A stretch of DNA of 14,003 bases, taken from positions 1-14,003 of IMG/VR virus record IMGVR_UViG_2778261067_000003, one strand, 5' to 3'. The stretch's first letter is position 1. Every line of letters starts with the position of its first letter. The position numbers were made by a program, and so were the translations under genes. Below are positions 1 to 14,003 of this stretch, piece by piece. Under the pieces are notes generated by a model. It saw only the letters and a program-made list of their open reading frames with translations. It was not told where the DNA came from and searched no databases. Source of the stretch: a virus. Lineage: Duplodnaviria > Heunggongvirae > Uroviricota > Caudoviricetes.

Positions 1-95
1 ACCGTCATCCCTGGTTCAAAGCTCTGCTGAACAATTGCGATCTTTTCCTGTGTGGTACGCCGTCTGCGTTTCTCCGGCCCTAAGACATCAATCAT
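1..95 (-). CDS. insC: IS2 OrfA/InsC transposase subunit, N-terminal part (partial, runs off the window)
   Basis: ATG at 93-95 on the minus strand, translating [31 protein letters not shown]..., the recalled InsC N-terminus. Open to the window edge, so it is absent from the ORF track. Confidence 0.75.
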
Positions 96-186
96 CTGTT
101 CTCCAATGACTAGTCTAAAAACTAGTATTAAGACTATCACTTATTTAAGTGATATTGGTTGTCTGGAGATTCAGGAGGCCAGTCTA
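1..186 (-). mobile_element. IS2 insertion sequence, left end (IRL plus start of orfA), continuing beyond the window edge
   Basis: Reverse complement of 186..71 reads TAGACTGGCCTCCTGAATCTCCAGACAACCAATATCACTTAAATAAGTGATAGTCTTAATACTAGTTTTTAGACTAGTCATTGGAGAACAGATGATTGATGTC..., which matches the IS2 terminus as I remember it. Not checked against ISfinder. Confidence 0.8.
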
Positions 187-435
187 ATGGCCACAGAACA
201 GGTAAAGACTTCCGGCAGGTTTCAGCACCCGCCAGAACTGCGCCAGACACTGGTCCAGCCACTTCAGGTAATCATCGTCGCCCTTCCACTGGTTATCCCA
301 GCCTTCAGGCTTCACTTTAAAGTACGGCGGGTCCGTGACTATCAGGTCAACAGAATTTTCGGGTAACGACCGGATAAATTCCAGGCAGTCGGCGTTGATT
401 AACTCACAACTGGATATTTTTACAGTATTAAGCAT
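187..435 (-). pseudogene. N6-adenine DNA methyltransferase (beta-class, DPPY motif), N-terminal 83 codons, interrupted by IS2
   Basis: Track ORF 184..435 carries ...VDLIVTDPPYF..., motif IV of amino-methyltransferases placed near the N-terminus as in beta-class enzymes. The TAG stop at 184-186 is supplied by the first bases of the IS2 terminus, and 83 aa is far short of a full enzyme. Confidence 0.7.
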
Positions 436-572
436 GGATCATTAAGCCTGTCTCTGATAGGCTCATTCTGCTTTTGCGCAAAGCAGATGGGCCTGAGGTT
501 TGCTTGTGACCCCAACGCATGAGCAGATGGCTGGTGAGTGCCCCTAACACCCACCAGCCGCCCATTTACCAC

Positions 573-600
573 AAATAAAAAAGCCTTCAGGACTGAAGGC
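573..600 (-). terminator. Rho-independent terminator (minus strand)
   Basis: Stem 583-589 GCCTTCA / 594-600 TGAAGGC with loop GGAC; on the minus-strand transcript it is followed by UUUUUUAUUU (plus-strand A-run 573-582). It overlaps the stop of the 587..784 ORF. Confidence 0.55.
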
Positions 601-784
601 GTCTGTAACAACCGAACTGATAGTCTGCCAGACCCGCCATAACAAGCTGGGTCAGTATTAGCTGGCAGCGTTCGCGTGAAAGGTACGTATTCTGTGCAAT
701 CTCCCCGACAGTCGCCGGTTCGGTGGCACTTAATTCATTAAAAACCACTCTGGCGGTTTCGGTCATATCCTGCTGTTTCAGCAT
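587..784 (-). CDS. Small hypothetical protein (about 65 aa) with a possible HTH/winged-helix segment
   Basis: Track ORF 587..877 trimmed to the internal ATG at 782-784 (MLKQQDMTETARVVFNELSATEPATVGEIAQNTYLSRERCQLILTQL...), with a purine-rich stretch about 10 nt upstream. A terminator sits at its 3' end. Function unknown. Confidence 0.45.
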   Translation of the reverse strand: MLKQQDMTETARVVFNELSATEPATVGEIAQNTYLSRERCQLILTQLVMAGLADYQFGCYRRLQS

Positions 785-957
785 GTCTTTTTCCCTTTTC
801 CGGTTAACGTGACACACCAATAACTCTTGTCGAAAAAGCCAGCAAGCTGAAAGACCGGTATTAATAACCACCTGCACATTTTATGTACTGCACCATTTTT
901 CTGGCATAAAAAAACCGCTCAATGCCGGGCAGTAAAATCTTTATTACTCAGGAAATT

Positions 958-1671
958 TTAACGTACTCTGACAGTATTAATTTCAAAATCATTAATATTT
1001 CCGCTATTAAATATAACGAATTTCTTACCCCCACTCCTGTATGATTTCGATAACACCAGACGATCATCATAGCGCGCAATAATGTAATACCATACATTCT
1101 CATAGTGGACCGTCTGATATTCCCTCTTAAACTGTGGTTTGTACCAACCGGCAATAAGAGAGAATGCCCAGAAATAAATCATAAACCCAGCCATCATGAA
1201 CTCAATTCGGTGATGGCGAATAACAGACATTTCCGAAAAACATTTGACTGAAACAAGTCTTCTTCCAGACCTGACAAAAAGCGTGATTGCAAAGGCAGCA
1301 AGAACACAGAAAATCAGTACATCTGGCTCAACATGCTGATGAATTACAGAAAACTCCAGAACAGGTGGAATAAAAAGCAGCAATATCGCGAGAAAAAGCC
1401 GGATAAAACTCAAATTTTGTATATTGCGCTTTTGTTTTATGCCCAAAAAGAAAACAATACCAACTCCCCATCCAATAAGGAATATAACGATAACTGTCAC
1501 AGCATAAAACAAACTTCGTGCTACATCATCGACACCAGCCCCGACAACCCACCATGGAAAGCCATAGTAAAATGAAGTACCCCATCCATAGAAATAAGCG
1601 CTCCCCCATCCGAGACAGCCCATATAAGCAACAAAAAGTGAAGAGTTTCTGAGCAGAGCACTGTCATCCAT
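958..1671 (-). CDS. Multi-pass membrane protein (about 5 predicted TM segments plus a roughly 60-aa soluble C-terminus), function unknown; AT-rich moron
   Basis: 237-aa ORF with a true ATG at 1669-1671. Hydrophobic stretches such as SLFYAVTVIVIFLIGWGVGIVFFLGI and LSFIRLFLAILLLFIPPVL. The region is visibly AT-rich compared with its neighbours. No recognisable catalytic motif. Confidence 0.6.
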   Translation of the reverse strand: MDDSALLRNSSLFVAYMGCLGWGSAYFYGWGTSFYYGFPWWVVGAGVDDVARSLFYAVTVIVIFLIGWGVGIVFFLGIKQKRNIQNLSFIRLFLAILLLFIPPVLEFSVIHQHVEPDVLIFCVLAAFAITLFVRSGRRLVSVKCFSEMSVIRHHRIEFMMAGFMIYFWAFSLIAGWYKPQFKREYQTVHYENVWYYIIARYDDRLVLSKSYRSGGKKFVIFNSGNINDFEINTVRVR

Positions 1672-1710
1672 AGTAACACCATTAACAACTCAAAAATATC
1701 AACACACATT

Positions 1711-1739
1711 ACATAACAAATTGGATTCCATGCAGTCAA
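1711..1739 (-). promoter_or_regulatory. Candidate sigma70 promoter for the membrane-protein moron
   Basis: Minus strand: TTGACT (plus 1734-1739), 17-bp spacer, TTATGT (plus 1711-1716), about 35 nt upstream of the ATG at 1671. Hexamer match only. Confidence 0.3.
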
Positions 1740-1811
1740 GGGGCGTCATTGATGGAGAAAGTATTGGCACAATCGTCATCACGTTTAATGTCTATGCCAT
1801 TTTTTGGGGGG

Positions 1812-1836
1812 TAAAAAACCCGCTCGGTCACGGGTT
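1812..1836 (-). terminator. Rho-independent terminator, tR'-like (downstream of the Q-like gene)
   Basis: Stem 1817-1822 AACCCG / 1831-1836 CGGGTT with an 8-nt loop; the minus-strand transcript continues with UUUUUUA. It lies about 70 nt downstream of the candidate pR'. Confidence 0.55.
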
Positions 1837-1888
1837 TTAGTGGCTTTGTCATCACGTATAATAACGGCAAAATATCAGATTTACACGA

Positions 1889-1917
1889 AACATATGCCTT
1901 TTTATCTACTTTTGCAA
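1889..1917 (-). promoter_or_regulatory. Candidate late promoter (pR'-like) just downstream of the Q-like gene
   Basis: Minus strand: TTGCAA (plus 1912-1917), 17-bp spacer, TATGTT (plus 1889-1894). Its position after the Q stop at 1925 and before the tR'-like terminator mirrors the lambdoid pR'/tR' layout. Confidence 0.4.
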
Positions 1918-1924
1918 TACTTTG

Positions 1925-2590
1925 CTATGAAAATGCCGCCTTTTGTTTTGAACGTGTTCCCTCCACCAACAATAAAGCTTCACTATCCAGCCGATGAAAA
2001 ATGTGTTTCATTGCAACCCAGTGACCAGTAAATGTCTTGGACCAGTTTTTGGTTGTTACTCCCACCAGTAACGCCAGTTCCTGGTATTCGTAACCTTCCC
2101 CACCAAAAAGCTCAGCTTTTACCGCCTGCGCCGCCAACCAGATCAACGTCTTCAGGCGCACCAGAGTTTTTCCTGCAATTTTTCTGGTACCGGATTGAGC
2201 ATTAAATTCAGTCCACGCCCACTGCGTTATCGCGATCTGATGCTCCCAGCAAATGCTACCGCTGTAACACCACAGCAGCCAGGCTTTATGATGTTCTTCA
2301 AGAGACAGAACGGCGCGTCGCCATGATGATGTCGAAAACTCAACCGGACTGACCAGGGCAATTGATGAGCCTTTCGCCAGTGATTGTTTACCCGGGATCG
2401 GGGGATTATCCCGCGTGATCATTTTTCCGGTTACCTCATCGCGGTAACGAATTTTTTTGCGTCTGTAACGCCCTGTATCGAACAGGGCATTTTCCTGCCA
2501 GGCTTCCAGCTGGCCTTTTGTCGACCCACTAAGATCCGCAGTGGCAATCATGAGTTGCTCACGAACAAACTGTAAATACTGGTTATTCAT
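1925..2590 (-). CDS. Putative late-gene antiterminator Q-like protein
   Basis: 221 aa from the ATG at 2588-2590 (the track start at 2596 is GTG). The start overlaps the rusA stop (ATGAATAA). The call rests on synteny (RusA, then this gene, then pR'/tR'); family assignment by sequence is uncertain. Confidence 0.5.
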   Translation of the reverse strand: MNNQYLQFVREQLMIATADLSGSTKGQLEAWQENALFDTGRYRRKKIRYRDEVTGKMITRDNPPIPGKQSLAKGSSIALVSPVEFSTSSWRRAVLSLEEHHKAWLLWCYSGSICWEHQIAITQWAWTEFNAQSGTRKIAGKTLVRLKTLIWLAAQAVKAELFGGEGYEYQELALLVGVTTKNWSKTFTGHWVAMKHIFHRLDSEALLLVEGTRSKQKAAFS

Positions 2591-2945
2591 GCACACCCAC
2601 CTCTGTAATTCTTATCTCCAGCCGTCCACCAGATACTGGCTTGCCACGTACAATATTGATTTCATCAAACTGCTCATCGTCCATTAACAACCCCGCGTGC
2701 GTCAGCGCATCCAGCGGTGCTTTCAGAATATTGTCCAGGTCACGGCGGCGCTTATCCGGTGGCTCTGCAATAATTTTTATTGCCAGCCGTCCGGACAGGC
2801 TTAATTTCAGTCGCTGCTGGCGAACAATAAGCGCCACTGCCCGGCGATAACGCTCCCCGGCTTTTGATACAAAATATGTGCTGCCACGGCGTCGCCAGTA
2901 AGTGTTCACCGTCGGCGGGTAAGGTAAAACCAAATCTATGAGCAT
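2583..2945 (-). CDS. rusA: Holliday junction resolvase RusA
   Basis: 120 aa, MLIDLVLPYPPTVNTYWRRRG...RRDLDNILKAPLDALTHAGLLMDDEQ...GGRLEIRITE, closely resembling E. coli RusA as I recall it. RBS AAGAGGTGA upstream of the ATG at 2943-2945. Confidence 0.9.
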   Translation of the reverse strand: MLIDLVLPYPPTVNTYWRRRGSTYFVSKAGERYRRAVALIVRQQRLKLSLSGRLAIKIIAEPPDKRRRDLDNILKAPLDALTHAGLLMDDEQFDEINIVRGKPVSGGRLEIRITEVGVHE

Positions 2946-2957
2946 CAGTCACCTCTT

Positions 2958-4007
2958 TTACCCGAGCACGCCAGTCGCAAAGGCGTGATCAAGAAAACGA
3001 AAAATTAACTCAATCTGAGAGCCGTACTTTTTCTCAAACTTCAGCGGGTCTGCATGAAGTTCGTTGTGGTGCTCCCGGCACAACGGTAGCGTGAAAATAT
3101 CGTGGGCCTTTGTTCCCACTCCCCCCTGACCATGACCAATCAGGTGATGCGGATCGTCAGCTGGCTTACCACAACACGCACACGGCTGTGTCTTTACCCA
3201 GCGCGTGTATTTCTCATTAACCCAACGGCGACGTTTAGGCCGCCTCATGAACGATTCAGGAGACTCCGGATCAACGGCGATACTGACAACCGTTTTTTTC
3301 TGTGGTGGATTTTGTTGCTGGTGGACGTGAAGTGGCAGCGCAATATTTTTTGTGCGCTGCTTCAGTATGCTGATGGCTGTCTGTTCTCCCGGTACGATGT
3401 CACTCTCACGGTATACGGAGCGGATTTTTTCCGCTGGTAATCCCAGCGAACGACGCGCTACTGCCTCAGGTAGTGCATCCACCACCTGATTGCAGGCCGC
3501 CCACCAGGATAATTCGGCCAGCGATAACTCCCTCTCCTGCGTACCGCTTATTGCGTGACGGATGACATCAATCATCCAGGCAACCAGATTCTGCTGAGCA
3601 AGTTGATCGAGTGATTCTGATGTCTGGTCGCGCAGCTGGTTGTCACAGTGCCAGCACAACACCATCGCGCCGGTACCATAACGGTGAATGACGGTTTCGC
3701 TGTGATGATAACCGCCGTGTGGCCACTGGCAGGATTTCACGTGACGTAATAACCAGTCAGACAGTGCACCTGCACCACCTGCAGCACGAATAACCCGCTC
3801 ATCGCTGAAAAATGGCAGTAATGTTTTATCCTCTGCCAGCGGCTGGCGAACGGCAGGAACGACTCCGGACGGCAGACCGCGCATGTTTTTCGGTTCCGGC
3901 TCCACCAATATTCTGCCGTTATGGAATACTGACATTGATTCACGGCCTGGCTTAACGATAACCAGACTGAGTTCCGGTACCAGAACAGGTCGAAGTAATA
4001 CCCGCAC
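2958..4007 (-). CDS. DUF968/YdfU-like phage protein with a C-terminal Cys/His cluster (HNH-like)
   Basis: 349 aa with a GTG start at 4005-4007 preceded by GGAGG at 5-nt spacing. C-terminus ...CACCGKPADDPHHLIGHGQGGVGTKAHDIFTLPLCREHHNELH.... Same length as the Qin YdfU I recall. Confidence 0.8.
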   Translation of the reverse strand: MRVLLRPVLVPELSLVIVKPGRESMSVFHNGRILVEPEPKNMRGLPSGVVPAVRQPLAEDKTLLPFFSDERVIRAAGGAGALSDWLLRHVKSCQWPHGGYHHSETVIHRYGTGAMVLCWHCDNQLRDQTSESLDQLAQQNLVAWMIDVIRHAISGTQERELSLAELSWWAACNQVVDALPEAVARRSLGLPAEKIRSVYRESDIVPGEQTAISILKQRTKNIALPLHVHQQQNPPQKKTVVSIAVDPESPESFMRRPKRRRWVNEKYTRWVKTQPCACCGKPADDPHHLIGHGQGGVGTKAHDIFTLPLCREHHNELHADPLKFEKKYGSQIELIFRFLDHAFATGVLG

Positions 4008-4008
4008 G

Positions 4009-4281
4009 TTACCTCCAGATGCGTTGCTGATATGTGCGGGACGGACGCGGCGGGCGTTCGGAATAAGGGAGCCTGACGGAAATTATCCAGTGTCGGAAGT
4101 CAGGACTGAGGCCTTTCTGAAACTGGTATCCACGTCTGCGGTAATTCTGAATCAGCCACTCGGCCTGTTCTTCAGTGCATTGGTCATGCTGGTACCAGTC
4201 ATATTTGAATGCGTGAGAGCGCCGTCCGTGTCTGCTGGCAGGGTCGGCATCAGAATTGTGGTGTTTGGTATTGTGCGCCAT
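4009..4281 (-). CDS. Hypothetical nin-region protein (about 90 aa)
   Basis: Track ORF 4009..4362 starts on TTG inside the U-tract of the upstream terminator, so I place the start at the internal ATG 4279-4281 (MAHNTKHHNSDADPASRHGRRSHAFKYDWYQHDQ...). Its stop abuts the RBS of the DUF968 gene. Confidence 0.5.
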   Translation of the reverse strand: MAHNTKHHNSDADPASRHGRRSHAFKYDWYQHDQCTEEQAEWLIQNYRRRGYQFQKGLSPDFRHWIISVRLPYSERPPRPSRTYQQRIWR

Positions 4282-4352
4282 CGGTTGTCTCTGCTGGCGC
4301 AGCAGGTGCCAGTTGTTCAGGCTGGCGTGTGGATTGTAAACCAGAATGCCAG

Positions 4353-4379
4353 GAAAAAACAAAACCCGCGAAGCGGGTT
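4353..4379 (-). terminator. Rho-independent terminator closing the R-M cassette
   Basis: Stem 4363-4369 AACCCGC / 4373-4379 GCGGGTT with loop GAA; the minus-strand transcript continues UUUUGUUUUUU. It lies 70-100 bp downstream of the endonuclease stop at 4452. Confidence 0.55.
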
Positions 4380-4451
4380 AGTAAAAATGTACTGAAGTCA
4401 ATGACGTGCCATCACAGTTAAAATATGACAGACTCTATTTACGTAGAGATG

Positions 4452-5330
4452 TCAGACTGCAAGATCCAAGGGAAGATCAGAAATATCCTTTAATCTTTTA
4501 CCATTAACCATCACGGAAAGCATGTCAGCTGCATCGCTGAGCCCCAGTATTTCAACTGCTGATATAAGTTCATAAAGCGCAAAATGATACACGCAATCTA
4601 TATCACCAGTACCAAGAGCAATAGACGCCAGACGACTTGGAGTAGGCTCAGCAGTAACAACCATTACATGAGGGAGATTTCCCTTACGGTTGCGAATAAG
4701 ATTTAATGCCTCAGAACGAGCATTCTGGGCCCGGTCGCTTCTTATTGTCCATTTGCAGGAAATACTTGCGTGTAATATTGGTTTCCCACCATTCGAACTC
4801 CTGAGAGCTGACATGCGGGTAACAGAATCATCCACCAGTAATTCAGGACTGTTGATAACTTGATCACATTCAGGTTCTCTTTCAACAATAATATCTGGTG
4901 AAATCGTATAATCACTCCCCAGTGCAGCAGCTAGCTGAGGATTACTTTTTGCAGCACTATCCAATGCTATAAGATGGGCATATTGTTCATATTTAGCTAT
5001 CTCTAATCTGTTTCTACCAGAAACCTGATGTACATTCCATTTTCCAGGGCGTAAGTGGCTGAGTTTAAAAAAGGTTTTTTCTATAAACTCTGCGCAGATA
5101 CTCTCAAACTGATTACCAGATGTTTGCCCTGCAACACGTTCACCAATCGTTTCAGCCTGCAAGAAGCGAGCAATTTCTCTTGCTATAGCTTTACTGTTTT
5201 TGTTACTGCTATCTGCGTTACTAACAACTCCGGCAGTATTAATTGTGAGCGTATTCAGTAACAATTGGGCATGAAACTCCTTTCTGGCTTCAGCAAAACC
5301 AACTATGCTGTCAACCAAATCTCCATTCAT
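4452..5330 (-). CDS. Type II restriction endonuclease, NgoMIV/Cfr10I/Bse634I-like (predicted CCGG-core recognition)
   Basis: 292 aa, ATG at 5328-5330 with AAGGA RBS, 13 bp after the methyltransferase stop. PD-(D/E)XK-type signature ...SPDIIVE... (D146) and ...SCKWTIRSDRAQNARSE... (K193, E207). The D-to-K (47) and K-to-E (14) spacing matches what I recall for NgoMIV (D140/K187/E201). Confidence 0.75.
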   Translation of the reverse strand: MNGDLVDSIVGFAEARKEFHAQLLLNTLTINTAGVVSNADSSNKNSKAIAREIARFLQAETIGERVAGQTSGNQFESICAEFIEKTFFKLSHLRPGKWNVHQVSGRNRLEIAKYEQYAHLIALDSAAKSNPQLAAALGSDYTISPDIIVEREPECDQVINSPELLVDDSVTRMSALRSSNGGKPILHASISCKWTIRSDRAQNARSEALNLIRNRKGNLPHVMVVTAEPTPSRLASIALGTGDIDCVYHFALYELISAVEILGLSDAADMLSVMVNGKRLKDISDLPLDLAV

Positions 5331-5343
5331 TTCTGGATTTCCT

Positions 5344-6468
5344 TCAGGCTACTTGACTATTCTTACTGATGTTATTCTTATACCGTCCCTGCAAAACTCC
5401 ATACACATATTGTGCGATTTTTGCCGCAAATAGCGGTGGAACAGCATTCCCGATCTGCTTTGCAATCTCAGTTTTTGAACCGGTAAAAATGAAATTATCA
5501 GGAAAAGACATTAATCTCGCTGCCTCACGATGAGTTATTGGCCGATCCTCTTCCGGATGTAAATATCGCCCTTTCTCCGGTTTGAAAAACTCAGTACGAA
5601 TCGTTACTGAAGGTCTGTCCCACCACAGACGTCCAAACAAATCGGTCCCTCCAGATTTCTTTTTTAGCCAGCACGCCGGGGTTATATCAGGTCTTTTTTT
5701 CTGTAAATCGAAACGGTTACCTCCTGGTGGAACCGCTTTATATCGCTCCAGAGAAACAGGTGTGGGATTACGCCCAAAATGTAAGTTCAGCGGAGGAAGT
5801 TCATTACGAATATCAGTTCCAACAGGAGCAGGTAAGTCACCAATTGCATCACGCGTACAGACCCATTCAGGCAAAGCGACATCCTTATCAGGGGAACGAT
5901 GCGTTGGTGCTGGCGGGAACGCCGGAATACTATGCACATCGAAGAGTTCTCGTTTGATACCGATTGCTATCGTTCGTTTTCTTGTCTGAGGTACTCCATA
6001 GTCAGCAGTATTCAACACCATTGGATTAAGCAGAATAAAGCCCATGGATTTCGCTCTAAACGTAATGTCCGCAAACTCATCGCTTATCAGCAATCCGGGG
6101 ACATTTTCCATGACGAACATACAAGCCCTTGAACGCTCAATGACATCCATATAAGGCTCCCACAATGCTCTTCGGTGATCACCATAACGATTCTTATTCA
6201 ATAAACTGAATCCCTGACACGGGGGGCCACCTATGACCACATCAGCCTCAGGAACAGTATTGCTGGATGCCCACTCCTCAATATTTGCCTGAACTCCATG
6301 CAAACCAAAATTGGCATTGTAGGTATTTATAGCTGCAGCATTATTATCAATAGCAAGGATACTTTCAAAGTAGTCAGACATCTCTCCATGAAGAAAACCA
6401 TAAGATAATCCACCTGCCCCACAAAAGAGGTCTATCACTCTGAATTTATTTAATTCTTTCATCCGCAT
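5344..6468 (-). CDS. DNA cytosine-5 methyltransferase (Type II R-M modification subunit)
   Basis: 374 aa with canonical m5C motifs: I DLFCGAGGLSYGF, IV GPPCQGFS (catalytic Cys), VI ENVPGL, VIII QTRKR, X GNAVPP. ATG at 6466-6468. Confidence 0.9.
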   Translation of the reverse strand: MRMKELNKFRVIDLFCGAGGLSYGFLHGEMSDYFESILAIDNNAAAINTYNANFGLHGVQANIEEWASSNTVPEADVVIGGPPCQGFSLLNKNRYGDHRRALWEPYMDVIERSRACMFVMENVPGLLISDEFADITFRAKSMGFILLNPMVLNTADYGVPQTRKRTIAIGIKRELFDVHSIPAFPPAPTHRSPDKDVALPEWVCTRDAIGDLPAPVGTDIRNELPPLNLHFGRNPTPVSLERYKAVPPGGNRFDLQKKRPDITPACWLKKKSGGTDLFGRLWWDRPSVTIRTEFFKPEKGRYLHPEEDRPITHREAARLMSFPDNFIFTGSKTEIAKQIGNAVPPLFAAKIAQYVYGVLQGRYKNNISKNSQVA

Positions 6469-6646
6469 CCATATGCCTCAGATTAATGTTGAGCGTCTTA
6501 CAGGACGCGTAATGTTAACTGGGGCTTTCTCTATCTGCCTTTTGGTGTTCATGCCTGAGGCAGACAGCCTCAGGCACCCGCAGCAATTCTACTTAACTCA
6601 CGTCACCTCGCCAATATGAAATCAATCAGAAAGGTGATCCATAAAA

Positions 6647-7333
6647 TCACTCCTTCTCTTCTTTTCCGTAGTGGAGTTGGCCAATTTTGATAAGAGGGCG
6701 TCCCTGAGATTTGCGGTGTAGATTGGTATCGCGCAGAGAATACACACAGCCACAATATTCCTGCTGATAGAATTTTTCGCGCTTGCTGATTTCAATCATA
6801 CGGGACGAGCCGCCCTGCTTGCGCCAGTTATAATCCCAGTACACCATACCCGGATAATGCGCAACAGCTCGCCGCCCACACTCGTTAACCTGCTGCATAT
6901 TTTTCCAGCGTGAAATGCCCAGTGAACTGCTGATCACACTGAAACCATTTTCAGCAGCGTACAACGCTGTCCGCTCAAAACGCATGTCAAAACACATGGT
7001 ACAACGGATCCCCCTCTCAGGCTCCCATTCCATTCCTTTGGCACGTTCAAACCAGTTGTCGGTGTCGTAATCAGCATCGATAAACGGCACGCCGTGTTGT
7101 TCAGCAAAGCGAATATTTTCATCCTTACGAATTAAATACTCTTTCTGAGGATGAATGTTCGGGTTGTAGAAAAAGATGGTGTAGTCGATTCCCGAGGCCT
7201 GAAGCGCCTCCATCACTTCACCGGAACATGGAGCACAGCAAGAGTGCAGTAGTAGTTTGTTTGCCCCGTTTGGGAGTTCCAATTTAGGCCGTTTGAAATC
7301 AGCAATAGTCATAAATATTTTTATTGGGGTCAT
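6647..7333 (-). CDS. queH: QueH (DUF208) family protein, epoxyqueuosine reductase homolog
   Basis: 228 aa with conserved cysteine clusters [22 protein letters not shown] and EYCGCVYS, typical of QueH/DUF208. No other queuosine pathway genes are present in the window. Confidence 0.8.
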
Positions 7334-7486
7334 GAAAATAGCACAGAGTGTAGCATCAGAGCAGGGCTATCGGGAATATATGTCTAAATCTGGTAATATC
7401 TGGTTTTGACGCAAAGCGGACAACCACGCTGGCTCTACCCTGCGCCATGAAAATGTCAATTCACATCTGAACTAATGCTCTTTAAT

Positions 7487-7882
7487 CTAGTAACGTCTAA
7501 AATACCTAACATTTCCTTGATAAAATGCCAGTACACGCTGCATAGCTTCGCTCTTCCGGCACTCGCGACAGATTATATTCAGGCGCCTGTCGTAGCGGCG
7601 TATTTCTCCGTCTGGTAACTTTCGAATCAGTGTCGGGTCAGCAGCCTTCTCCGGTGTCTTACGCCATACGCGATACGCCTGCTCTGATGGAAATACCCCG
7701 CAATCACAGAGCCAGACATCACCACTGGCCGCAAGCGCACCAGATAAACGACGAATAGCGGTCTTACTGACACCCGTTTTATCTGCCAGTTGTCGAAAAG
7801 TTTCTCGTCCGCTCAGGCGCACGAATTCCACAATGCGCGCCTTCACTTCTTCCCGCTCTTCTGGTGTAAATACTTTTGCCAT
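7487..7882 (-). CDS. Hypothetical phage protein (about 131 aa) with an HTH-like segment and Cys pairs
   Basis: The track start at 7897 is TTG; the ATG at 7880-7882 has GGAGG 7 nt upstream (MAKVFTPEEREEVKARIVEFVRLSGRETFRQLADKTGVSKTAIRRL...WLCDCG...ICRECR...). Confidence 0.6.
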   Translation of the reverse strand: MAKVFTPEEREEVKARIVEFVRLSGRETFRQLADKTGVSKTAIRRLSGALAASGDVWLCDCGVFPSEQAYRVWRKTPEKAADPTLIRKLPDGEIRRYDRRLNIICRECRKSEAMQRVLAFYQGNVRYFRRY

Positions 7883-7897
7883 AAGCGCCTCCGGCAA

Positions 7898-8668
7898 TCA
7901 CTTTTCCGACACAATACGACCGGATGAATCGACAATCTGTCGAACAATATCCCGGTGCTTGTTCAGCTCCCGCAGCGCGGCGCAGACTCGCTCCCACTTC
8001 TGAACCTGACCTTTTGCCCGGCGCAGCTCGCGGTTAGCCACATGCAGCGATGGTAAAATCAGACCATCCGGATGTTTTCTGGTGAACGACGGCTGTGACT
8101 GCACTGTGACCGCCACACTTTCAGTTTTTATTTCTTCCTGTGTTTCCGCTTCCCGGACAGGTAACGCAATACCTGCTGGCTGAGGAATGGCTTTACCATC
8201 CGTTTCCGCTACGGATGCAGCTTCCGGCTCTGCCGGTAAATCAGCGCCCGGTATGCAGTAACGAAATTTACCGTTCTGATTTACGCGTGCCAGGCGCCCC
8301 GTTGCTGTTACGACCGCCAACGTGGAAGCAACCTTGCGAATGCTAACACCGAACTTATCCGCCAGTTCCTCACACGTTTTAGCCCCATCCTGACAGATAA
8401 ACTCAATCATCATGTCCGCGGTAACTTTTTGTTCGACCTCCCCGGTCAGCACATCCGGTACTTCAGACTGTGCTGGCTGTTCTTCGGTTACCCCGGATTC
8501 ACCTTCACCAGCCAGAAACCAGGTGTGACCCGTTTTATCAACAACGCCATTTTCTTTGAGTTCCCACAGTTCGTTGAGAACTTCTTCACGGCTGATATCA
8601 AGCCGCGCCGCCAGTTCAACAGAATTGGCTTTACCCATCGCTTTCAGTGCATGCAATACGGTTTCCAT
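7898..8668 (-). CDS. Hypothetical phage protein (256 aa) with an N-terminal winged-helix-like segment and an acidic linker
   Basis: ATG at 8666-8668 with GGAGGAAG RBS. N-terminus [43 protein letters not shown], with a second similar segment ([19 protein letters not shown]). Directly downstream of the DnaC-like gene. Confidence 0.65.
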
Positions 8669-8697
8669 TAAAACTTCCTCCGGATAAAAATTACTTC

Positions 8698-9438
8698 TCA
8701 GTTCCTGTGCTGGCTGACGTTCGGACGCCAGCTCTCCCAGTTAAACGTCACCCAGCGACCACCGTTCATGGACATGCGGTCCATCACCCGCTCGCCGAGA
8801 AGTGTATTCATCGCTGCATGGTTAAGATTTGTCAGCATCCCCACACTGAGTAACGATGCCGTTCTGCGGTCAACAATCTGATTCAGCGTGACCTGCTCAT
8901 TACGCGTATCCCGTTGCATGCCAATTTCATCCAGTACCAGCAGGTCAACGCCACACAATCCCTGCAAAAATTTTTCGCCCGAGTTTTTGTTGTCGTAGCT
9001 GCCATGTAACGCCAGCATCACATCCGCCACTGTTATCACAATCACACTGCGACCTTTCGCCAGAAGGTGGTTGCCAATAGCCGCCGCCAGGTGGTTTTTT
9101 CCTGTGCCAGGCCTGCCACTGAAAACAAAATTCGTACAGCCGCCTTCCAGCTCTGCCGCAATGGATTTCGCCTGACTCAGGGCATGGCGCTGACCATCGT
9201 TCTGCACCCGGTAGTTACCGAACGTACACTTCCGGTGAAGCAGCTGGATACCGGAGCGGTTAATAATTTTTTCAACCCGCGTCTGATGATTCAGACGATT
9301 AACCTCCTCGCTGCGCTTACGCCCTTCAGCAAGCTGCCATTCCCGCCACTCCGCCACCGTACGGTACGGAGGGATTGCATCCTGCGGCACAAATCTGCTG
9401 ACTCTTGCCAGAACACCACCTGACGTAATGTTTTTCAT
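8698..9438 (-). CDS. DnaC-like replicative helicase loader (AAA+)
   Basis: 246 aa with Walker [16 protein letters not shown] and Walker B LLVLDEIG; end-to-end resemblance to recalled E. coli DnaC (...NRSGI..L....F.NYRV......ALS.A......F.G......[15 protein letters not shown]...). Confidence 0.9.
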
Positions 9439-9444
9439 GGTGCG

Positions 9445-10392
9445 CTACCCCCTGAAACCCGGCGGAATTTCGGTATCCGGTTCAGAAATATGATTCACGC
9501 AACGCTGCGCGGGACCACGCCACAGTCGAATAACCAGTTCATCCCATTTCTCACGGAGTTTTTCCGGGCTCTTGATGTTTTTTATCCAGAACGGATCTCG
9601 TTGTGCCCGGCTGAACATTTCGCAAATTTGTCTGTGACTTCTTCCATCCAGCATCCGCATTGTGCGCACGTCATTGGCCCACGCCGTCCAGTTGGGCTCT
9701 TTCGGTCGCGTGATCTCACCATCGTCACTGGCAGCCTGTTCGTAAAGACTCACGATTCGTCCCCAGATCCACTGTGCGCACACCAAATCTTCCTGACTTC
9801 CCCACTGGCGTTTTTTCGCACTGAACACAACCGCGTCAGGGTGTCGGGTTAAAAAATCCTGTTCAGCCGTCTGCGGGTCCGGTTGCGAAGCGTCCGGACA
9901 AGAAGATCTTTTATCTGACGGATCAGGTTTTAATACTGACGGATCGGGGTCAATCATCGGCCCCCTAATCGGCAGTTTTTTATCAACAGTTGATCCATCA
10001 AAATTTGACGGGTCAACCGTTGAGGGGTCAATATTTGACGGGTCATTTTTTGCCGGGCTAATTTTTCTTTTCGGTTTATATGACTCACGCGCCGCCGCCG
10101 CAGCTGCTTCGAGTTTTTCCACATTAAGCCGATAGATATTGCTTACATTACGCCCACCGACCTTACGCTCTTCCTTCGTCAGCCAGCCCTCTTTCGCCAG
10201 TTCTGCAATAGCCGATTTCACTGTGGATTCACTTCTTGCACCGATCTGACGCCGGATAGTTTCAATGGCAGGCCATGACACGCCCTCGTCATTGCTGTAG
10301 TCTGCAAGACGGGCCATAACCGCCACCCTGGATAAGATCATGCCGGTGAAGGCGCACCCTTCCCAGACAAGACCATGAAGCTTGCTGCTCAT
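9445..10392 (-). CDS. Phage replication initiation protein (O-like: N-terminal HTH, repeat linker, DnaT-like C-terminus)
   Basis: Start placed at ATG 10390-10392 (MSSKL..., GGGGG upstream) rather than the track start at 10407. The C-terminus ...VNHISEPDTEIPPGFRG resembles the E. coli DnaT C-terminus (...SEPDSQIPPGFRG). A DPS-repeat linker (DPSNIDPSTVDPSNFDGSTVD) is encoded by the iteron DNA. Confidence 0.85.
   Translation of the reverse strand: MSSKLHGLVWEGCAFTGMILSRVAVMARLADYSNDEGVSWPAIETIRRQIGARSESTVKSAIAELAKEGWLTKEERKVGGRNVSNIYRLNVEKLEAAAAAARESYKPKRKISPAKNDPSNIDPSTVDPSNFDGSTVDKKLPIRGPMIDPDPSVLKPDPSDKRSSCPDASQPDPQTAEQDFLTRHPDAVVFSAKKRQWGSQEDLVCAQWIWGRIVSLYEQAASDDGEITRPKEPNWTAWANDVRTMRMLDGRSHRQICEMFSRAQRDPFWIKNIKSPEKLREKWDELVIRLWRGPAQRCVNHISEPDTEIPPGFRG
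9911..10080. repeat. Iteron-like repeats plus AT-rich tract inside the O-like gene: candidate replication origin
   Basis: TTGACGGGTCA at 10005-10015 and 10035-10045, TTGAGGGGTCA 10020-10030, TTGATCCATCA 9990-10000, TGACGGATC at 9916-9924 and 9937-9945, followed by an AT-rich stretch at about 10046-10080. This parallels lambda ori lying within gene O. Confidence 0.5.
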
Positions 10393-10414
10393 AAAACCCC
10401 CGAACACCGTGCTT

Positions 10415-10840
10415 TTAGTGCATCACCACAGCATTCCCTGCCGGGCCGCCGCGATTCATCTGGTCATACAAAACAACCGCTGACGCAACAAAATCATCGA
10501 CATCCTTCACCAGCCGATCCCTCCGTTCGACGATCTCACGGTAATATTCAGAACTGTGGCTGCGCATACGGGCCACCAGCAAAGGCGGCATCGCCTTTTC
10601 GATCGCCGGTAACAGAGCCTGCATTTTTTCAACAGCATCAGGGGTGTCTTTATCCAGCCAACGGAAAATTTTCTGGGTATTACGGGCCAGGGCTTCCGGA
10701 TGGCTGTCGTCATACAGTTCCGGGAACGTCATTCCCAGCTCGAAATACGCTTTGGTAATTTTCGCAGCCGGCACTTTTTCGCCGTCCGGATGCGCCCAGA
10801 CATTCATCGCCATGCGGATGTGTTCATGCTTGATTTTCAT
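10415..10840 (-). CDS. YdaT-like protein (CII-position regulator of Rac/Qin-type prophages)
   Basis: 141 aa, ATG at 10838-10840 with GGGGGG RBS; start overlaps the stop of the Cro-like gene (ATGA). N-terminus MKIKHEHIRMAMN... matches my recollection of the YdaT family. Confidence 0.7.
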   Translation of the reverse strand: MKIKHEHIRMAMNVWAHPDGEKVPAAKITKAYFELGMTFPELYDDSHPEALARNTQKIFRWLDKDTPDAVEKMQALLPAIEKAMPPLLVARMRSHSSEYYREIVERRDRLVKDVDDFVASAVVLYDQMNRGGPAGNAVVMH

Positions 10841-11067
10841 GAATCCCCCCCTTGGTTAGAAGGCGGATTATGATCAGAACCGGGAATGACAACCGTCGGT
10901 ATGTGTAACTCATATTTGAGCGCCCCGGCAGTGACTGCCTGAATTAGCAACGCCCATTTCCACGGAACCTCTTCCCCCCACATGCTGACTGTGGTTTTTG
11001 ACGTTCCTAGAGCTGCGGCTGTTTTAACAACTCCGCCAAAATAGCCTAATACTTCTGATTTTTTCAT
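10837..11067 (-). CDS. Cro-like / YdaS-like HTH regulator
   Basis: 76 aa from the ATG at 11065-11067 (MKKSEVLGYFGGVVKTAAALGTSKTTVSMWGEEVP...) with GGAG about 8 nt upstream. Divergent from the CI-like repressor; HTH pattern of the YdaS family. Confidence 0.7.
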   Translation of the reverse strand: MKKSEVLGYFGGVVKTAAALGTSKTTVSMWGEEVPWKWALLIQAVTAGALKYELHIPTVVIPGSDHNPPSNQGGDS

Positions 11068-11141
11068 GAGTCGCTCCATAAAACTGAACGTCAAAAGTTT
11101 AATAATCAAAACCAAAGAAAGTCAAGAAACAAAACCATCTG

Positions 11142-11159
11142 TGTTTTAAAATCAAAACA
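11142..11159. promoter_or_regulatory. Operator-like palindrome TGTTTT-N6-AAAACA abutting the repressor start codon
   Basis: TGTTTTaaaatcAAAACA at 11142-11159, a perfect 6-bp inverted repeat; the cI-like ATG is 11159-11161, implying a leaderless or very short-leader repressor mRNA. An identical motif recurs at 11864-11881. Confidence 0.5.
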
Positions 11160-11797
11160 TGAGCAAGCAAACTATATCTGAACGCATAACCCAACGTATG
11201 CATGCGCTAAACCTGAAAGGCAAAGACCTTGTCAATGGCACTGGCGCATCAAAAGGCTCCGTAAGTCAATGGATGAACGGTGGAGGAGCGCCGTCCTCGC
11301 GTTACATAAGTTCACTGGCAAAAATATTGAAAGTAAACGAAAATTGGCTTCTTAATGGAGGAGAGTTAAATACAGGTGATTCGCTTGATCTATCTTTACC
11401 GCCGATAAAAACGGTTCCGCTACTATCACTTCAGCAGGCAGCAAGCTGGAGTGATTATATGAAAAATTCCTCAATAACCTCTTGTGTGCAGCTTGTCGGA
11501 GAAATCCCGGTCAATACCTTTGCAGTTGTTCTAGAGAGTGACAGTATGTCAACATCTGGTGGGGGAGTTTCCATCCCAAATGGTTCAACAGTTTTTGTTG
11601 ATCCCGATCGAACCGTACAACCAGGAAATATTGTCCTTGCCTTACCCAAAGGGACCACAACACCTGTCATTCGTAAACTGGAGATAGAAGGGCCGGATAT
11701 TCTTTTAGTCCCCACGAATCCTCGCTACCCTTCAATTATGCTGGATGATCTATCTTGCATATTGGGCGTATGCTTTAAAATTCAACAAGATATTTAA
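11159..11797 (+). CDS. Lambda CI-type prophage repressor (N-terminal HTH, C-terminal S24 LexA-like autopeptidase)
   Basis: 212 aa. N-terminus ...LNLKGKDLVNGTGASKGSVSQWMNG... (HTH). C-terminus ...LESDSMS...VFVDPDRTVQPGNIVLA...VIRKLE... aligns with the Ser/Lys dyad region of lambda CI/LexA. Confidence 0.9.
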   Translation: MSKQTISERITQRMHALNLKGKDLVNGTGASKGSVSQWMNGGGAPSSRYISSLAKILKVNENWLLNGGELNTGDSLDLSLPPIKTVPLLSLQQAASWSDYMKNSSITSCVQLVGEIPVNTFAVVLESDSMSTSGGGVSIPNGSTVFVDPDRTVQPGNIVLALPKGTTTPVIRKLEIEGPDILLVPTNPRYPSIMLDDLSCILGVCFKIQQDI

Positions 11798-11863
11798 CCA
11801 ACCTCATCTATTTGATTAACTGTATGCCATCGTGGTGATGGCTTAACAGCTGCCTGCTTAAAA

Positions 11864-11910
11864 TGTTTTGATAAAAAAACATTGACCTGAAAAGTTCGTT
11901 TTTCTAAACT
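11864..11910 (+). promoter_or_regulatory. Second operator copy fused to a candidate promoter for the dicB-type operon
   Basis: TGTTTTgataaaAAAACA at 11864-11881, immediately followed by TTGACC (11882-11887), 17 bp, TAAACT (11905-11910). Confidence 0.45.
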
Positions 11911-12089
11911 TCATTCGTTCCCTCACCCCATCCTACAGAATGCAGGGCAATACTTCGAGTTACCAGGCAGTGGTCAGGGGTTAAGTAGCCAGCCCGAGGC
12001 GTAAGAACATGACGGCAGGGTTCAACTTTAATAACTATGCAGCAGGTTTTTGTTCCGCTACCCCGGCGTTAAGGGGAAATGAGGTCAGC

Positions 12090-12245
12090 ATGGATACTAT
12101 CGATCTTGGCAACAACGAATCTCTGGTGTACGGCGTGTTTCCAAACCAGGACGGCACCTTCACCGCAATGACGTATACAAAAAGCAAAACGTTTAAAACC
12201 GAAAATGGTGCCCGTCGCTGGCTGGAAAGAAACTCAGGTGAGTGA
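12090..12245 (+). CDS. ydfA: YdfA-like small protein (51 aa), first gene of the dicB-type operon
   Basis: ATG at 12090 with GAGG 5 nt upstream (MDTIDLGNNESLVYGVFPNQDGTFTAMTYTKSKTFKTENGARRWLERNSGE). Length and position match Qin ydfA as I recall it. The track ORF 12009..12245 is an N-terminal over-extension. Confidence 0.65.
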   Translation: MDTIDLGNNESLVYGVFPNQDGTFTAMTYTKSKTFKTENGARRWLERNSGE

Positions 12246-12246
12246 T

Positions 12247-12375
12247 ATGGATTTCAACACAATCATGGAAAAGGCTTACGAAGAATACTTCGAAGGCCTT
12301 GCCGAAGGCGAAGAAGCCCTCAGCTTCAGTGAGTTTAAACAGGCGCTTTCCAGTTCGGCAAAATCTAACGGCTGA
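12247..12375 (+). CDS. ydfB: YdfB-like small protein (42 aa)
   Basis: Not in the track (too short). ATG 12247-12249 overlaps the upstream stop (TGATATG). Translation MDFNTIMEKAYEEYFEGLAEGEEALSFSEFKQALSSSAKSNG, stop at 12373-12375. Confidence 0.6.
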   Translation: MDFNTIMEKAYEEYFEGLAEGEEALSFSEFKQALSSSAKSNG

Positions 12376-12404
12376 TAAGCGAAACAGCACCGCGAGGAAT
12401 CAGT

Positions 12405-12623
12405 ATGCAGAAACGAGAACCCGTCATCATCGCGCCAGACTATACCGATGATGAACTTTATGAGTGGATGCACCAGAAAATTAAGGCTGCGCAGGACCTG
12501 AAATGGGCCAATGAAGCCAAGACTAAGCAGGCTGAAAATCTGTCCGCTCTGGAGCAGGATATCACCAGGCTGGAAAAAGCAGCGGCATTAAGCATTGCCA
12601 GAATGATTACATACCCGCGTTAA
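12405..12623 (+). CDS. ydfC: YdfC-like small protein (72 aa)
   Basis: Track ORF with AGGAA RBS before the ATG at 12405. Length and position match Qin ydfC (72 aa) as recalled. Confidence 0.65.
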   Translation: MQKREPVIIAPDYTDDELYEWMHQKIKAAQDLKWANEAKTKQAENLSALEQDITRLEKAAALSIARMITYPR

Positions 12624-12934
12624 TAGCTAACCAACGAAGCTAAGGTTGGTAATTAAAGAGTTCTCCACGGGTGAGCATCCGGCACTGACAGTTTACTGAA
12701 AGGATATTTCCCTGAAAAGTCAGACCATAACGCGAAAGCGCACGGCGAGGTAGCTGGTTCATAGATAGCCTGTCGTTAAATTTTCGTCGACCGTGCGCTT
12801 CCGGTTGTGGCACTCCGCGAAATGGCGCGGCGGTAAGTATGGCGGGGTTATTCCTTCCCCGTTGAGGACACCGGGTTGTCAGGTTGACCATACGCTTAAG
12901 TGACAACCCCGCTGCAACGCCCTCTGTTATCAAT

Positions 12935-12992
12935 TTTCTGGTGACGTTTGGCGGTATCAGTTTTACTCCGTGACTGCTCTGCCGCCCTTTTT
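12935..12992 (+). ncRNA. dicF: DicF small regulatory RNA (ftsZ-targeting sRNA of the dicB operon)
   Basis: TTTCTGGTGACGTTTGGCGGTATCAGTTTTACTCCGTGACTGCTCTGCCGCCCTTTTT matches the DicF sequence as I remember it, ends in a T-run (12988-12992), and sits between the ydfC-like and dicB genes as in Qin. Confidence 0.75.
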
Positions 12993-13161
12993 AAAGTGAA
13001 TTTTGTGATGTGGTGAATGCGGCTGAGCGCACGCGGAACAGTTAAAACCAAAAACAGTGTTATGGGTGGATTCTCTGTATCCGGCGTTAATTGTTAACTG
13101 GTTAACGTCACCTGGAGGCACCAGGCACCGCATCACAAAATTCATTGTTGAGGACGCGATA

Positions 13162-13350
13162 ATGGAAACGTTATTACCAAACGTTAATACGTCTGAAGGT
13201 TGTTTTGAAATTGGTGTCACTATCAGTAACCCTGAATTTACTGAAGATGCCATTAACAAGAGAAAACACGAACGGGAGTTATTAAATAAAATATGCATTG
13301 TTTCAATGCTGGCCCGTTTACGCCTGATGCAAAAAGGACGCTGGCAATGA
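13162..13350 (+). CDS. dicB: Cell-division inhibitor DicB
   Basis: 62 aa from the ATG at 13162 with GAGGA RBS: METLLPNVNTSEGCFEIGVTISNPEFTEDAINKRKHERELLNKICIVSMLARLRLMQKGRWQ, near-identical to recalled E. coli DicB. The track ORF 13057..13350 is over-extended. Confidence 0.85.
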   Translation: METLLPNVNTSEGCFEIGVTISNPEFTEDAINKRKHERELLNKICIVSMLARLRLMQKGRWQ

Positions 13351-13550
13351 ATACTGCTGTTGCCCTCACTCTGACTGTTTTTCTTAATACTGGCGAACCT
13401 GTTGATGTGGTTACTGGTATATATGGTTCAATGAAAGAATGTATGGCTGCCGCAGCAGAACAGAAAATTCCTGGTAACTGTTATCCGGTCGAGAAAGTTA
13501 TTCGCATGGATAATAACGAAATCCCGGCAGGATTAAAAACAGCGCCGTAA
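13347..13550 (+). CDS. ydfD: YdfD-like small protein with hydrophobic N-terminus
   Basis: ATG 13347-13349 overlaps the dicB stop (ATGA). MNTAVALTLTVFLNTGEPVDVVTGIYGSMKECMAAAAEQKIPGNCYPVEK...; position matches ydfD in Qin. Confidence 0.7.
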   Translation: MNTAVALTLTVFLNTGEPVDVVTGIYGSMKECMAAAAEQKIPGNCYPVEKVIRMDNNEIPAGLKTAP

Positions 13551-13629
13551 TTAATATCCAGTTTCATTTTTATATGCCAGCAATGGCAGGGATTTGTTCA
13601 CCCTTAAATCTGTAATGAGGTAAAACAAA

Positions 13630-14003
13630 ATGAGTAAAGTCTTTATTTGCGCCGCCATTCCGGACGAACAGGCAATAAAGGAAGAAGGTGCAGTCGCTGT
13701 AGCCACTGCCATTGAAGCCGGTGATGAACGTCGCGCCCGTGCAAAATTTCACTGGCAATTCCTGGAACATTATCCGGCTGCTCAGGACTGCGCTTATAAA
13801 TTTCTTGTTTGCGAGGATAAACCCGGTATACCCCGCCCTGCCCTCGATTCCTGGGATGCTGAATATATGCAGGAAAACCGCTGGGATGAGGAGTCTGCTT
13901 CCTTTGTCCCGGTTGAGACTGAATCAGATCCGATGAACGTCACTTTTGACAAGCTGGCCCCTGAAGTACAGAACGCTGTCATGGTTAAGTTCGACACATG
14001 TGA
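13630..14003 (+). CDS. YdfE-like protein, N-terminal part (open to the right window edge)
   Basis: ATG at 13630 with GAGG RBS; the frame stays open for 124 codons to the window end (MSKVFICAAIPDEQAIKEEGAVAVATAIEAGDERRARAKFHWQFLEHYPAAQDCAYKF...). Missing from the track because there is no stop. Competing track ORFs here are in other frames or antisense. Confidence 0.6.
   Translation, partial: MSKVFICAAIPDEQAIKEEGAVAVATAIEAGDERRARAKFHWQFLEHYPAAQDCAYKFLVCEDKPGIPRPALDSWDAEYMQENRWDEESASFVPVETESDPMNVTFDKLAPEVQNAVMVKFDTC

Follow-up and report, generated by a model that had tools for sequence, protein, structure and literature searches.

The window analysed here, the whole of a 14,003-nucleotide stretch of viral DNA (positions 1 to 14,003 of IMG/VR record IMGVR_UViG_2778261067_000003), is an Escherichia coli prophage with a 100% match to NZ_CM144250. 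The subject is an array of short palindromic repeats (iterons) that lies inside the gene for an O-like replication initiator, and which an earlier reading of the sequence, referred to here as the original prediction, had proposed as a candidate phage origin at 9911-10080. The gene starts at an ATG (MSSKL), as in the RefSeq annotation of a 94%-identical homologue; a mechanical list of open reading frames (ORFs) lengthens it to a GTG at 10407. Since the gene runs on the minus strand, so does the logical sequence of its parts, and they are listed here accordingly:

9445-10392, minus strand: gene for the O-like replication initiator, 315 residues (ORF)
10099-10392, minus strand: N-terminal winged-helix DNA-binding domain (N-domain), residues 1-98, presumed iteron reader (Pfam HTH_36)
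10047-10075, minus strand: A-rich tract (AAACCGAAAAGAAAAATTAGCCCGGCAAAAAA), upstream of the array in gene orientation, encoding KPKRKISPAK
9982-10046, minus strand: iteron array, four 15-nt units and a terminal half-site (repeat finders, motif scan)
9976-9981, minus strand: A6 run
9946-9965, minus strand: decayed inverted repeat, GGGGGCCGA-TGA-TTGACCCC
9904-9945, minus strand: family-conserved GATC/AT-rich module, consisting of GATCCGTCAG (9936-9945), TATTAAAACCT, GATCCGTCAG (9915-9924), ATAAA and AGATCT (9904-9909)
9877-9903, minus strand: conserved 3' flank of the element (TCTTCTTGTCCGGACGCTTCGCAACCGGAC), with near-invariant codons to residue 172 (TGT 100%, GAC 100%)
9529-9864, minus strand: C-terminal domain (C-domain), homologous to that of lambda O (BLASTP)
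9448-9516, minus strand: C-terminal tail, ...VNHISEPDTEIPPGFRG, common to host DnaT and Rac YdaU
8698-9438, minus strand: gene for a DnaC-type helicase loader, directly downstream of the initiator gene (Pfam, NCBIfam)

The array is palindromic, with the core TGAC-CC-GTCA, and lies on the coding (minus) strand of the initiator gene. Read in gene orientation, the A-rich tract is followed by ATGACCCGTCAAATA / TTGACCCCTCAACGG / TTGACCCGTCAAATT / TTGATGGATCAACTG / TTGAT and then by A6, after which come the decayed inverted repeat and the series GATCCGTCAG-TATTAAAACCT-GATCCGTCAG-ATAAA-AGATCT. The cores are TGACCCGTCA (10036-10045), TGACCCCTCA (10021-10030), TGACCCGTCA again (10006-10015), TGATGGATCA (9991-10000) and the terminal TTGAT (9982-9986), and the half-sites TTGAC and GTCAA alternate along the array at 7/8-nt steps. 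On the plus strand the same DNA reads as TTGACGGGTCA at 10005-10015 and 10035-10045, TTGAGGGGTCA at 10020-10030 and the related TTGATCCATCA at 9990-10000, with TGACGGATC at 9916-9924 and 9937-9945. The 11-bp TTGA(C/G)GGGTCA-type copies that had first drawn attention to the site are thus real: a degenerate core, TGAYSSNTCA, has nine strand matches at five sites in the 14-kb window, all of them within 9916-10045, where 1.16 matches are expected, and none of 200 dinucleotide-preserving shuffles reaches nine. Two copies of GATCCGTCAG lie beyond the array at 9915-9945.

The suggestion that a repeat finder be used to formalise the periodicity has been followed, and both searches return a period of 15: Tandem Repeats Finder gives 3.2-4.2 copies, and a second search gives four in-register copies (spacing 15/15/15) as well as two 13-nt CTGACGGATC(A/G)GG copies 21 nt apart. 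(An inverted-repeat finder reported none, the 5-nt arms being below its seed length; dyad symmetry was instead scored by script, which found 5-7 of 7 positions palindromic in the consensus 15-mers of the lineages.) The core motif does not occur elsewhere in the 14-kb window, nor did Tandem Repeats Finder show another repeat cluster there. A related initiator is encoded in a complete 44-kb phage genome, where the repeated 10-mers of its linker are likewise confined to that linker. As the original prediction had it, the DNA of the array encodes the DPS-repeat linker of the initiator, reading DPSNI-DPSTV-DPSNF-DGSTV-D and then DPDPSVLKPDPSD in the minus-strand ORF.

Conservation was assessed in 66 distinct homologues (65 from other genera and the window itself, covering about 30 genera), in 80 near-identical viral contigs, and in the named phages SfIV, SfII, phiNP and SKA5. 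Non-conservation in related phages had been offered as grounds for refutation, and the opposite was found: a tandem repeat stands at the same place in all homologues collected, with 3-10 (about 10) units. All 80 close viral contigs (L077-L156) and the 94%-identical chromosomal copy have five units. The window carries a rare four-unit allele, exactly one 15-nt unit fewer than the common E. coli allele, and the missing fifth unit, TGACCCGTTAACAGT (peptide DPLTV), is that at the upstream end of the array. The most divergent relatives (L063, L064, L068) have longer repeat periods in the linker, among them a 33-nt period (EPPVFRATSGL x 3) flanked by CCTCCAGAATCTGGAGG palindromes, and one of about 60 nt in L063. 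The architecture of the array is itself evolving.

Does selection act here on the peptide or on the DNA? Of the 316 D-x-S units in the 66 genes, 89% have TCA as the serine codon, while TCA makes up 10% of the serine codons in the N-domains of these genes and 19% in their C-domains. At conserved residues of a codon-threaded alignment, the top codon has a frequency of 0.3-0.7 over residues 1-98 and of 0.9-1.0 over residues 116-172, where the six-fold degenerate serine is TCA or TCT at 93-100%. Where the N-domains of a pair are no more than 80% identical, a shared residue is written with the identical codon in 38% of cases in the N-domain, 79% in the linker and 39% in the C-domain, and synonymous sites are saturated in the domains on either side of the linker. 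The constrained codons map to 9877-10047; together, the array and the constrained segment make up codons 116-172, between the HTH_36 domain (1-98) and the C-domain (177-288). The middle codon of the unit is free to change (P, A, T, G or V), while the codons on either side of it have fixed third positions. Relatives from Erwinia, Edwardsiella and Morganella have the unit both as TTGACCCCTCAA and as the reverse complement of this, TTGAGGGGTCAA, a flip that turns the peptide from DPS to EGS and keeps the palindrome, and perfect 15-nt palindromes are found in other lineages as well (CGTCAGAATCTGACG, GTTCAGATTCTGAAC and GTCCAGAATCTGGAC). Same-strand alternative frames are open across the region in none of the 66 homologues and the antisense frame in only 12-15 of them; there is no promoter-like or terminator-like site within 9877-10080 and no Rfam family in the element. 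Given the TCA bias, the codon identity in the linker, the orientation flips, and the lack of an alternative frame, signal or RNA, the constraint acts on the nucleotides, and it follows dyad symmetry rather than peptide or codon structure. For the most part, the peptide sequence of the linker is simply carried along with the DNA element.

The iteron sequence, in turn, tracks the predicted recognition helix and wing variant of the N-domain, independently of the type of C-domain. N-domains with STVK or TTVS in the helix/wing, together with RK-GGRN, go with iterons of the form GTCAA-N3-TTGAC (the window type); those with STVRTAI and RR-GNRNAS go with (C)GTCA-AAATC-TGAC(G) (the SfIV type), those with STVITAI with GTTCAGATTCTGAAC or GTCCAGAATCTGGAC, and those with STVYGAL with CTCCAGAATCTGGAG. 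Heads of the STVRT/STIRT kind keep type-B iterons whether they are joined to lambda-O-type, phiNP-type or other C-domains, and in phiNP the array is retained beside a different C-domain. A pattern of initiator-iteron specificity of this sort is known for the lambdoid phages lambda, 434, phi80 and P22. Since the type of iteron co-varies with the N-domain clade and not with the C-domain, it is presumably the N-domain of the initiator that binds the array.

The initiator itself matches PHROG 391 ("replication initiation O-like") over its full length (residues 1-315, profile positions 1-298 of 298, E = 1.2e-112), and the term O-like is also justified by its C-domain, of which residues 177-288 are 40% identical to residues 171-270 of lambda O over 112 residues (BLASTP, E = 5e-25). 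The C-terminal half also matches the PHROG families "DnaD-like helicase loader" and "replisome organizer". Where the term misleads is at the other end of the protein. The N-domain belongs to Pfam HTH_36 (27.9 bits against a cut-off of 25, with a weak match to DnaD_N); Phage_rep_O has no Pfam match at E <= 0.01 in the initiator, and a profile comparison with hhalign detects no relation between this N-domain and that of lambda O (probability 0.2%). The protein is a hybrid, with a lambda-O-type C-domain joined to an N-domain of no detectable kinship to that of lambda O.

An origin would also be expected to contain a segment that is easily unwound. The AT-rich segment named in the original prediction, 10047-10080, does exist: in 40-nt windows at 10030-10079 the A+T content is 62-65%, with a strong skew to T on the plus strand (AT skew -0.68) and a local stability minimum at 10055-10085. 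This tract is lineage-specific and weak, however, and is missing from the SfIV-type lineage, which has no counterpart of these 11 codons; the relevant AT tract is therefore probably at the other end of the array, an arrangement of iterons followed by AT-rich DNA that is also the order in lambda. The candidate unwinding region is the family-conserved module at 9904-9945, the least stable 40-nt stretch of the gene (9900-9940 is 65% A+T). A pair of GATCC(G/A)TCAG motifs, 18, 21 or 24 nt apart, is found in 53 of the 66 genes, with a spacer that averages 82% A+T, and the codons of the module are nearly invariant (Asp GAT 100% at both sites, Val GTA 97%, Ser TCA 98-100%). Four GATC sites within 9905-9995 form the densest cluster of the window, at 4 per 100 bp against a mean of 0.29. 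Between the module and the array lie the decayed inverted repeat, of which an intact form, GGGGTCAA-TGG-TTGACCCC, is found in Erwinia relatives, and the A6 run, which together with the last unit is overlapped by the least stable 30-nt stretch of the gene (9976-10006, 77% A+T). The 3' flank contains a palindrome, GTCCGGAC, and two copies of CCGGAC exactly 15 nt apart, which is the iteron period. The extent first proposed for the element thus needs adjustment at both ends, since it reaches about 35 nt below the predicted start, to ~9877, and the top ~33 nt (10047-10080) are not conserved in the family.

An iteron-plasmid or DnaA-dependent type of origin was considered and rejected: DnaA-box-like sites are not enriched in the window (23, against 30 expected) and no IHF consensus was found. 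The only perfect match to a relaxed DnaA box in the window is TTTTCCACA at 10115-10123 on the plus strand, about 70 nt from the array, where the codons differ in the SfIV lineage.

Taken together, these features indicate that 9877-10046 is probably the replication origin of the prophage, placed inside the linker DNA of its own initiator, and it is best read as an origin of the lambda type in which the specificity of initiator and iterons is a different one. The reasons are the position in the linker, the order of iterons and then AT-rich DNA, the lambda-type C-domain, and the start of the array at codon 116, all of which match a proven origin, in which the iterons start at codon 117. By analogy with lambda, dimers of the initiator would bind the palindromic units through their N-domains and form an O-some-like complex, which would destabilise the adjoining AT-rich GATC segment at 9904-9945, reached by transcription after the array. 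DnaB might then be brought in by the lambda-O-type C-domain and its DnaT-like tail, via the DnaC-type loader encoded next door. Transcription from the cro/ydaT-like operon would read through the site, and the conserved GATC sites could allow Dam methylation or SeqA to modulate firing.

Several points weigh against this reading. The AT-rich component is weak, at 65-77% A+T compared with 78-83% in lambda by the same measure; for instability, even the weakest 20-40-nt stretches of 9880-10090 come only within the top 1.7-4.9% of the window, and the conserved AT-rich core between the GATCC motifs is only ~8-14 nt long. The N-domain and the array are parts of one gene, 50-200 nt apart, and their covariation may be due to some extent to linkage instead of recognition. 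This particular prophage copy may also be impaired, having lost one unit and with the inverted repeat at 9946-9965 decayed, and no experiment on this initiator type was found in the literature. Finally, little weight can be given to a circular "plasmid" record, L159 (NZ_CP148542.1, 15,977 bp), as plasmid evidence for the origin, since its compensating homopolymer frameshifts are typical of long-read errors. L159 contains only the early and lysis region, from repressor to lysozyme, without a typed plasmid replicon and with homopolymer frameshifts in the O-like and ydaT genes, and it may be a lambda-dv-like circle or an assembly artefact. Another candidate for plasmid evidence, a 44-kb Klebsiella "plasmid", turned out to be a complete phage genome.

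What else could the array be? It might be a true binding site of the N-domain that serves some purpose other than initiation, such as letting the replication operon regulate itself through a roadblock inside the gene, or controlling copy number by pairing; the origin would then lie elsewhere in the prophage. Constraint at the DNA level and covariation with the N-domain would fit any array of binding sites equally, and the weak AT-rich component is in keeping with such a role. This alternative is nevertheless unlikely, given that the match to a proven origin extends to linker position, part order, C-domain type and starting codon, that no other repeat cluster was seen in the 14-kb window or in the complete related 44-kb genome, and that a pure operator would have no obvious use for the conserved GATC/AT-rich module.

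Less likely again is that the 3' part of the element (~9877-9945) is a module-boundary linker, kept alike through homologous exchange of N- and C-domains and having nothing to do with replication. The segment does lie exactly at the junction where different C-domains (lambda-O-type, phiNP-type and others) are joined to the same N-domain clades, and it is conserved across otherwise diverged genes. That conservation, on the other hand, spans ~30 genera with saturated synonymous sites on both sides, and it is specific to position (GAT and not GAC, TCA, GTA), not a uniform block of recent identity. Exchange at this boundary also leaves the lineage-specific palindromic arrays upstream unexplained, and it is compatible with an origin at the same place and does not exclude one.

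There is little probability that the array is a mere disordered linker of DPS pentapeptides, growing and shrinking by slippage, with the DNA repeats as a functionless by-product. An in-frame repeat with a period divisible by three, gains and losses of whole units, and an abundance of P, S, D and K are all as such a linker would show them; a peptide would nonetheless not account for the excess of TCA and of synonymous identity over the rest of the gene, for the fixed third positions around a free middle residue, or for flips between DPS and EGS that keep the palindrome. An overlapping gene, a promoter or terminator inside the initiator gene, or an RNA structure can hardly be entertained as the source of the synonymous constraint, since a 56-aa ORF does overlap the region in another frame of the minus strand (9954-10124) but same-strand frames are open in none of the homologues and neither a promoter- or terminator-like site nor an Rfam family was found.

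The origin, if that is what the element is, lies next to genes that fit it. The loader matches Pfam IstB_IS21 (E = 9e-16) and the NCBIfam model PRK12377 (471 bits against a cut-off of 389), so that the DnaC-like neighbour reported earlier holds up; because it scores above the cut-off for PRK12377 and below that of the DnaC equivalog model (300 bits, cut-off 357), it is best described as a relative of DnaC and not DnaC itself. The replication module may accordingly be called complete, as had been claimed, for this window, but the pairing does not define the family: of 65 diverse relatives, only 5 have a DnaC-like neighbour. Nine closest or related relatives (L006-L012, L049, L069, L070) have a lambda P-like gene instead, and many have neither. 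The lambda O C-domain works with lambda P, and in the closest iteron-type relatives (L006-L012) the same lambda-O-type C-domain is encoded beside a lambda P-like gene; in the window it is paired with a DnaC-type loader.

The end of the initiator bears on this partnership. Its last 19-23 residues (RCVNHISEPDTEIPPGFRG) match the extreme C-terminus of host DnaT (SEPDNHIPPGFRG; PDB 6aep, 2ru8, 9zbt) with E = 5e-5 to 2e-4, and the tail is also the only similarity of the initiator to Rac YdaU (RQVNTVSLPDSAIPPGFRG; L157 3421-3477, the 3' end of ydaU). The three proteins are otherwise unrelated, and each is encoded just upstream of a DnaC-type gene. Among the relatives with a lambda P-like partner, the GFRG tail is found in none of nine. 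From its distribution, the tail may be a peptide for docking with DnaC or DnaB. How DnaT recruits DnaB/DnaC was still unexplained in a 2026 structural study (PMC13377028), and docking by a ...SxPDxxIPPGFRG tail would, if true, answer how DnaT recruits the helicase.

Two bolder proposals may be considered jointly: either the locus represents a distinct origin design, in which a tight lattice of 15-nt units made of alternating half-sites is combined with a family-wide GATCC pair around a short AT-rich spacer, or the tail docks the DnaC-DnaB complex. That one or the other holds is rather unlikely. With a distinct design, the initiator would coil along the DNA in a spiral almost without gaps, and firing would be gated by Dam methylation or SeqA.

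The remaining neighbourhood is that of a lambdoid, Qin/Rac-like E. coli prophage, with the following further features:

11159-11797, plus strand: CI-like repressor gene
10837-11115, minus strand: cro
10415-10840, minus strand: YdaT/cII-like gene
12936-12987, plus strand: DicF RNA (Rfam, 76.7 bits)
6399-6579, minus strand: sok antitoxin RNA (Rfam, 61 bits)

The likeness to Qin is based on the DicF and sok RNAs, together with ydfB, ydfC and hokD neighbours in relatives. Other prophage genes include DUF1627, DUF977, QueH, a restriction-modification pair, DUF968, RusA and Q. The pair consists of an NgoMIV-family restriction enzyme adjoining a C5 cytosine methyltransferase and, with the QueH (epoxyqueuosine reductase) homologue, occupies 4452-6468 and 6647-7333, both on the minus strand. 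Only 6 records match the window at 99% or more, and 1435 match at 90-95%.

Why is such an origin of interest? A full-length relative of the initiator is present in 1515 of 5426 complete E. coli genomes, and this initiator type is also found in Shigella serotype-converting phages, in Klebsiella prophages and in many other Enterobacterales. No description of an origin for it was found in the searchable literature, though a prior prediction is possible in reviews in subscription journals, which lay outside the search. Because the family is so widespread, the value of the result is mainly practical, and it is not surprising in kind. It gives a definition of the origin at the sequence level (iterons, specificity classes and the conserved GATC/AT-rich module) and predictions for replicon cloning, assays of prophage activity and incompatibility typing. 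It also provides a clear case from nature in which a DNA element sets the amino-acid sequence of the protein linker that it encodes.

Among known systems, the gene modules of Rac and of the Gram-positive phages offer partial parallels. The Rac module (ydaU-ydaV-ydaW, with oriJ) has the same layout of repressor, cro-like gene, ydaT, initiator, DnaC-like gene and DUF1627; the loader is 74% identical to YdaV, and the initiators share the C-terminal IPPGFRG tail. YdaU, however, is a DUF1376 protein without similarity beyond that tail, and ydaU contains no comparable array, only ATAAAG x 3.3 by Tandem Repeats Finder. Although oriJ has been reported active, it was rejected as a direct precedent for these reasons. 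In the replisome-organiser genes of Gram-positive phages, such as SPP1 gene 38, the gene for a winged-helix initiator likewise contains the repeats that this initiator binds, together with an AT-rich stretch. The weak DnaD_N match and the PHROG matches of the C-terminal half recall this group, but host range and partner proteins differ, and the likeness is one of arrangement rather than of demonstrated membership at the sequence level.

The origins of Stx phages (933W, "P27") are those of lambdoid E. coli prophages with the origin inside O. Their iterons vary in number by whole units, adding residues to the linker (Kozlowska et al. 2020, PMC7466680). Their O proteins and iterons are nearly identical to those of lambda, whereas the initiator here has an N-domain of another family and unrelated iterons. 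The "P27" O-ori study (PMC7466680) was accordingly rejected as experimental support, the footprinted O being lambda-type; the sequenced phage phiP27 (AJ298298) does encode a 53%-identical N-domain, but it is not the phage tested in that study.

The closest counterpart is lambda ori itself, and the lambda-like arrangement first proposed is borne out by the comparison. In lambda the origin lies in the DNA for the linker between the domains of the initiator, as does the candidate origin identified here from sequence; the palindromic iterons begin at codon 117 of O as annotated and at codon 116 here, a less stable stretch, only modestly AT-rich here, follows them in the direction of transcription, the C-terminal domains are homologous (40% identity), and a cro/cII-like operon lies upstream. 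To the right of its AT-rich region, lambda has a palindrome (CGTCAGAGAATTCTGGCG; L158 ~562-580) that resembles the family-conserved CCGTCAGAATCTGGCGG (peptide PSESGG; e.g. L003, L020), and the lambda linker peptide SSENSGESSDQPENDL resembles SSSQNSNESSDQPKIDFL of Providencia relatives; these two resemblances hint at shared ancestry of the right arm of the origins. The differences are equally plain. The lambda N-domain is Phage_rep_O, in place of HTH_36, and lambda has 18-nt palindromes with start-to-start distances of 20/24/23 nt, in place of 15/15/15 nt with 5-nt half-sites and almost no spacer. Just downstream, lambda has 40 nt at 78-80% A+T, where the AT-rich part is weaker in the window; GATC sites are absent from lambda ori, and two or three are conserved here; and the partner is lambda P there and a DnaC-type ATPase here. 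The element is thus of an expected kind, the lambda paradigm extended to another DNA-binding head, and it is the details of its sequence that are new.

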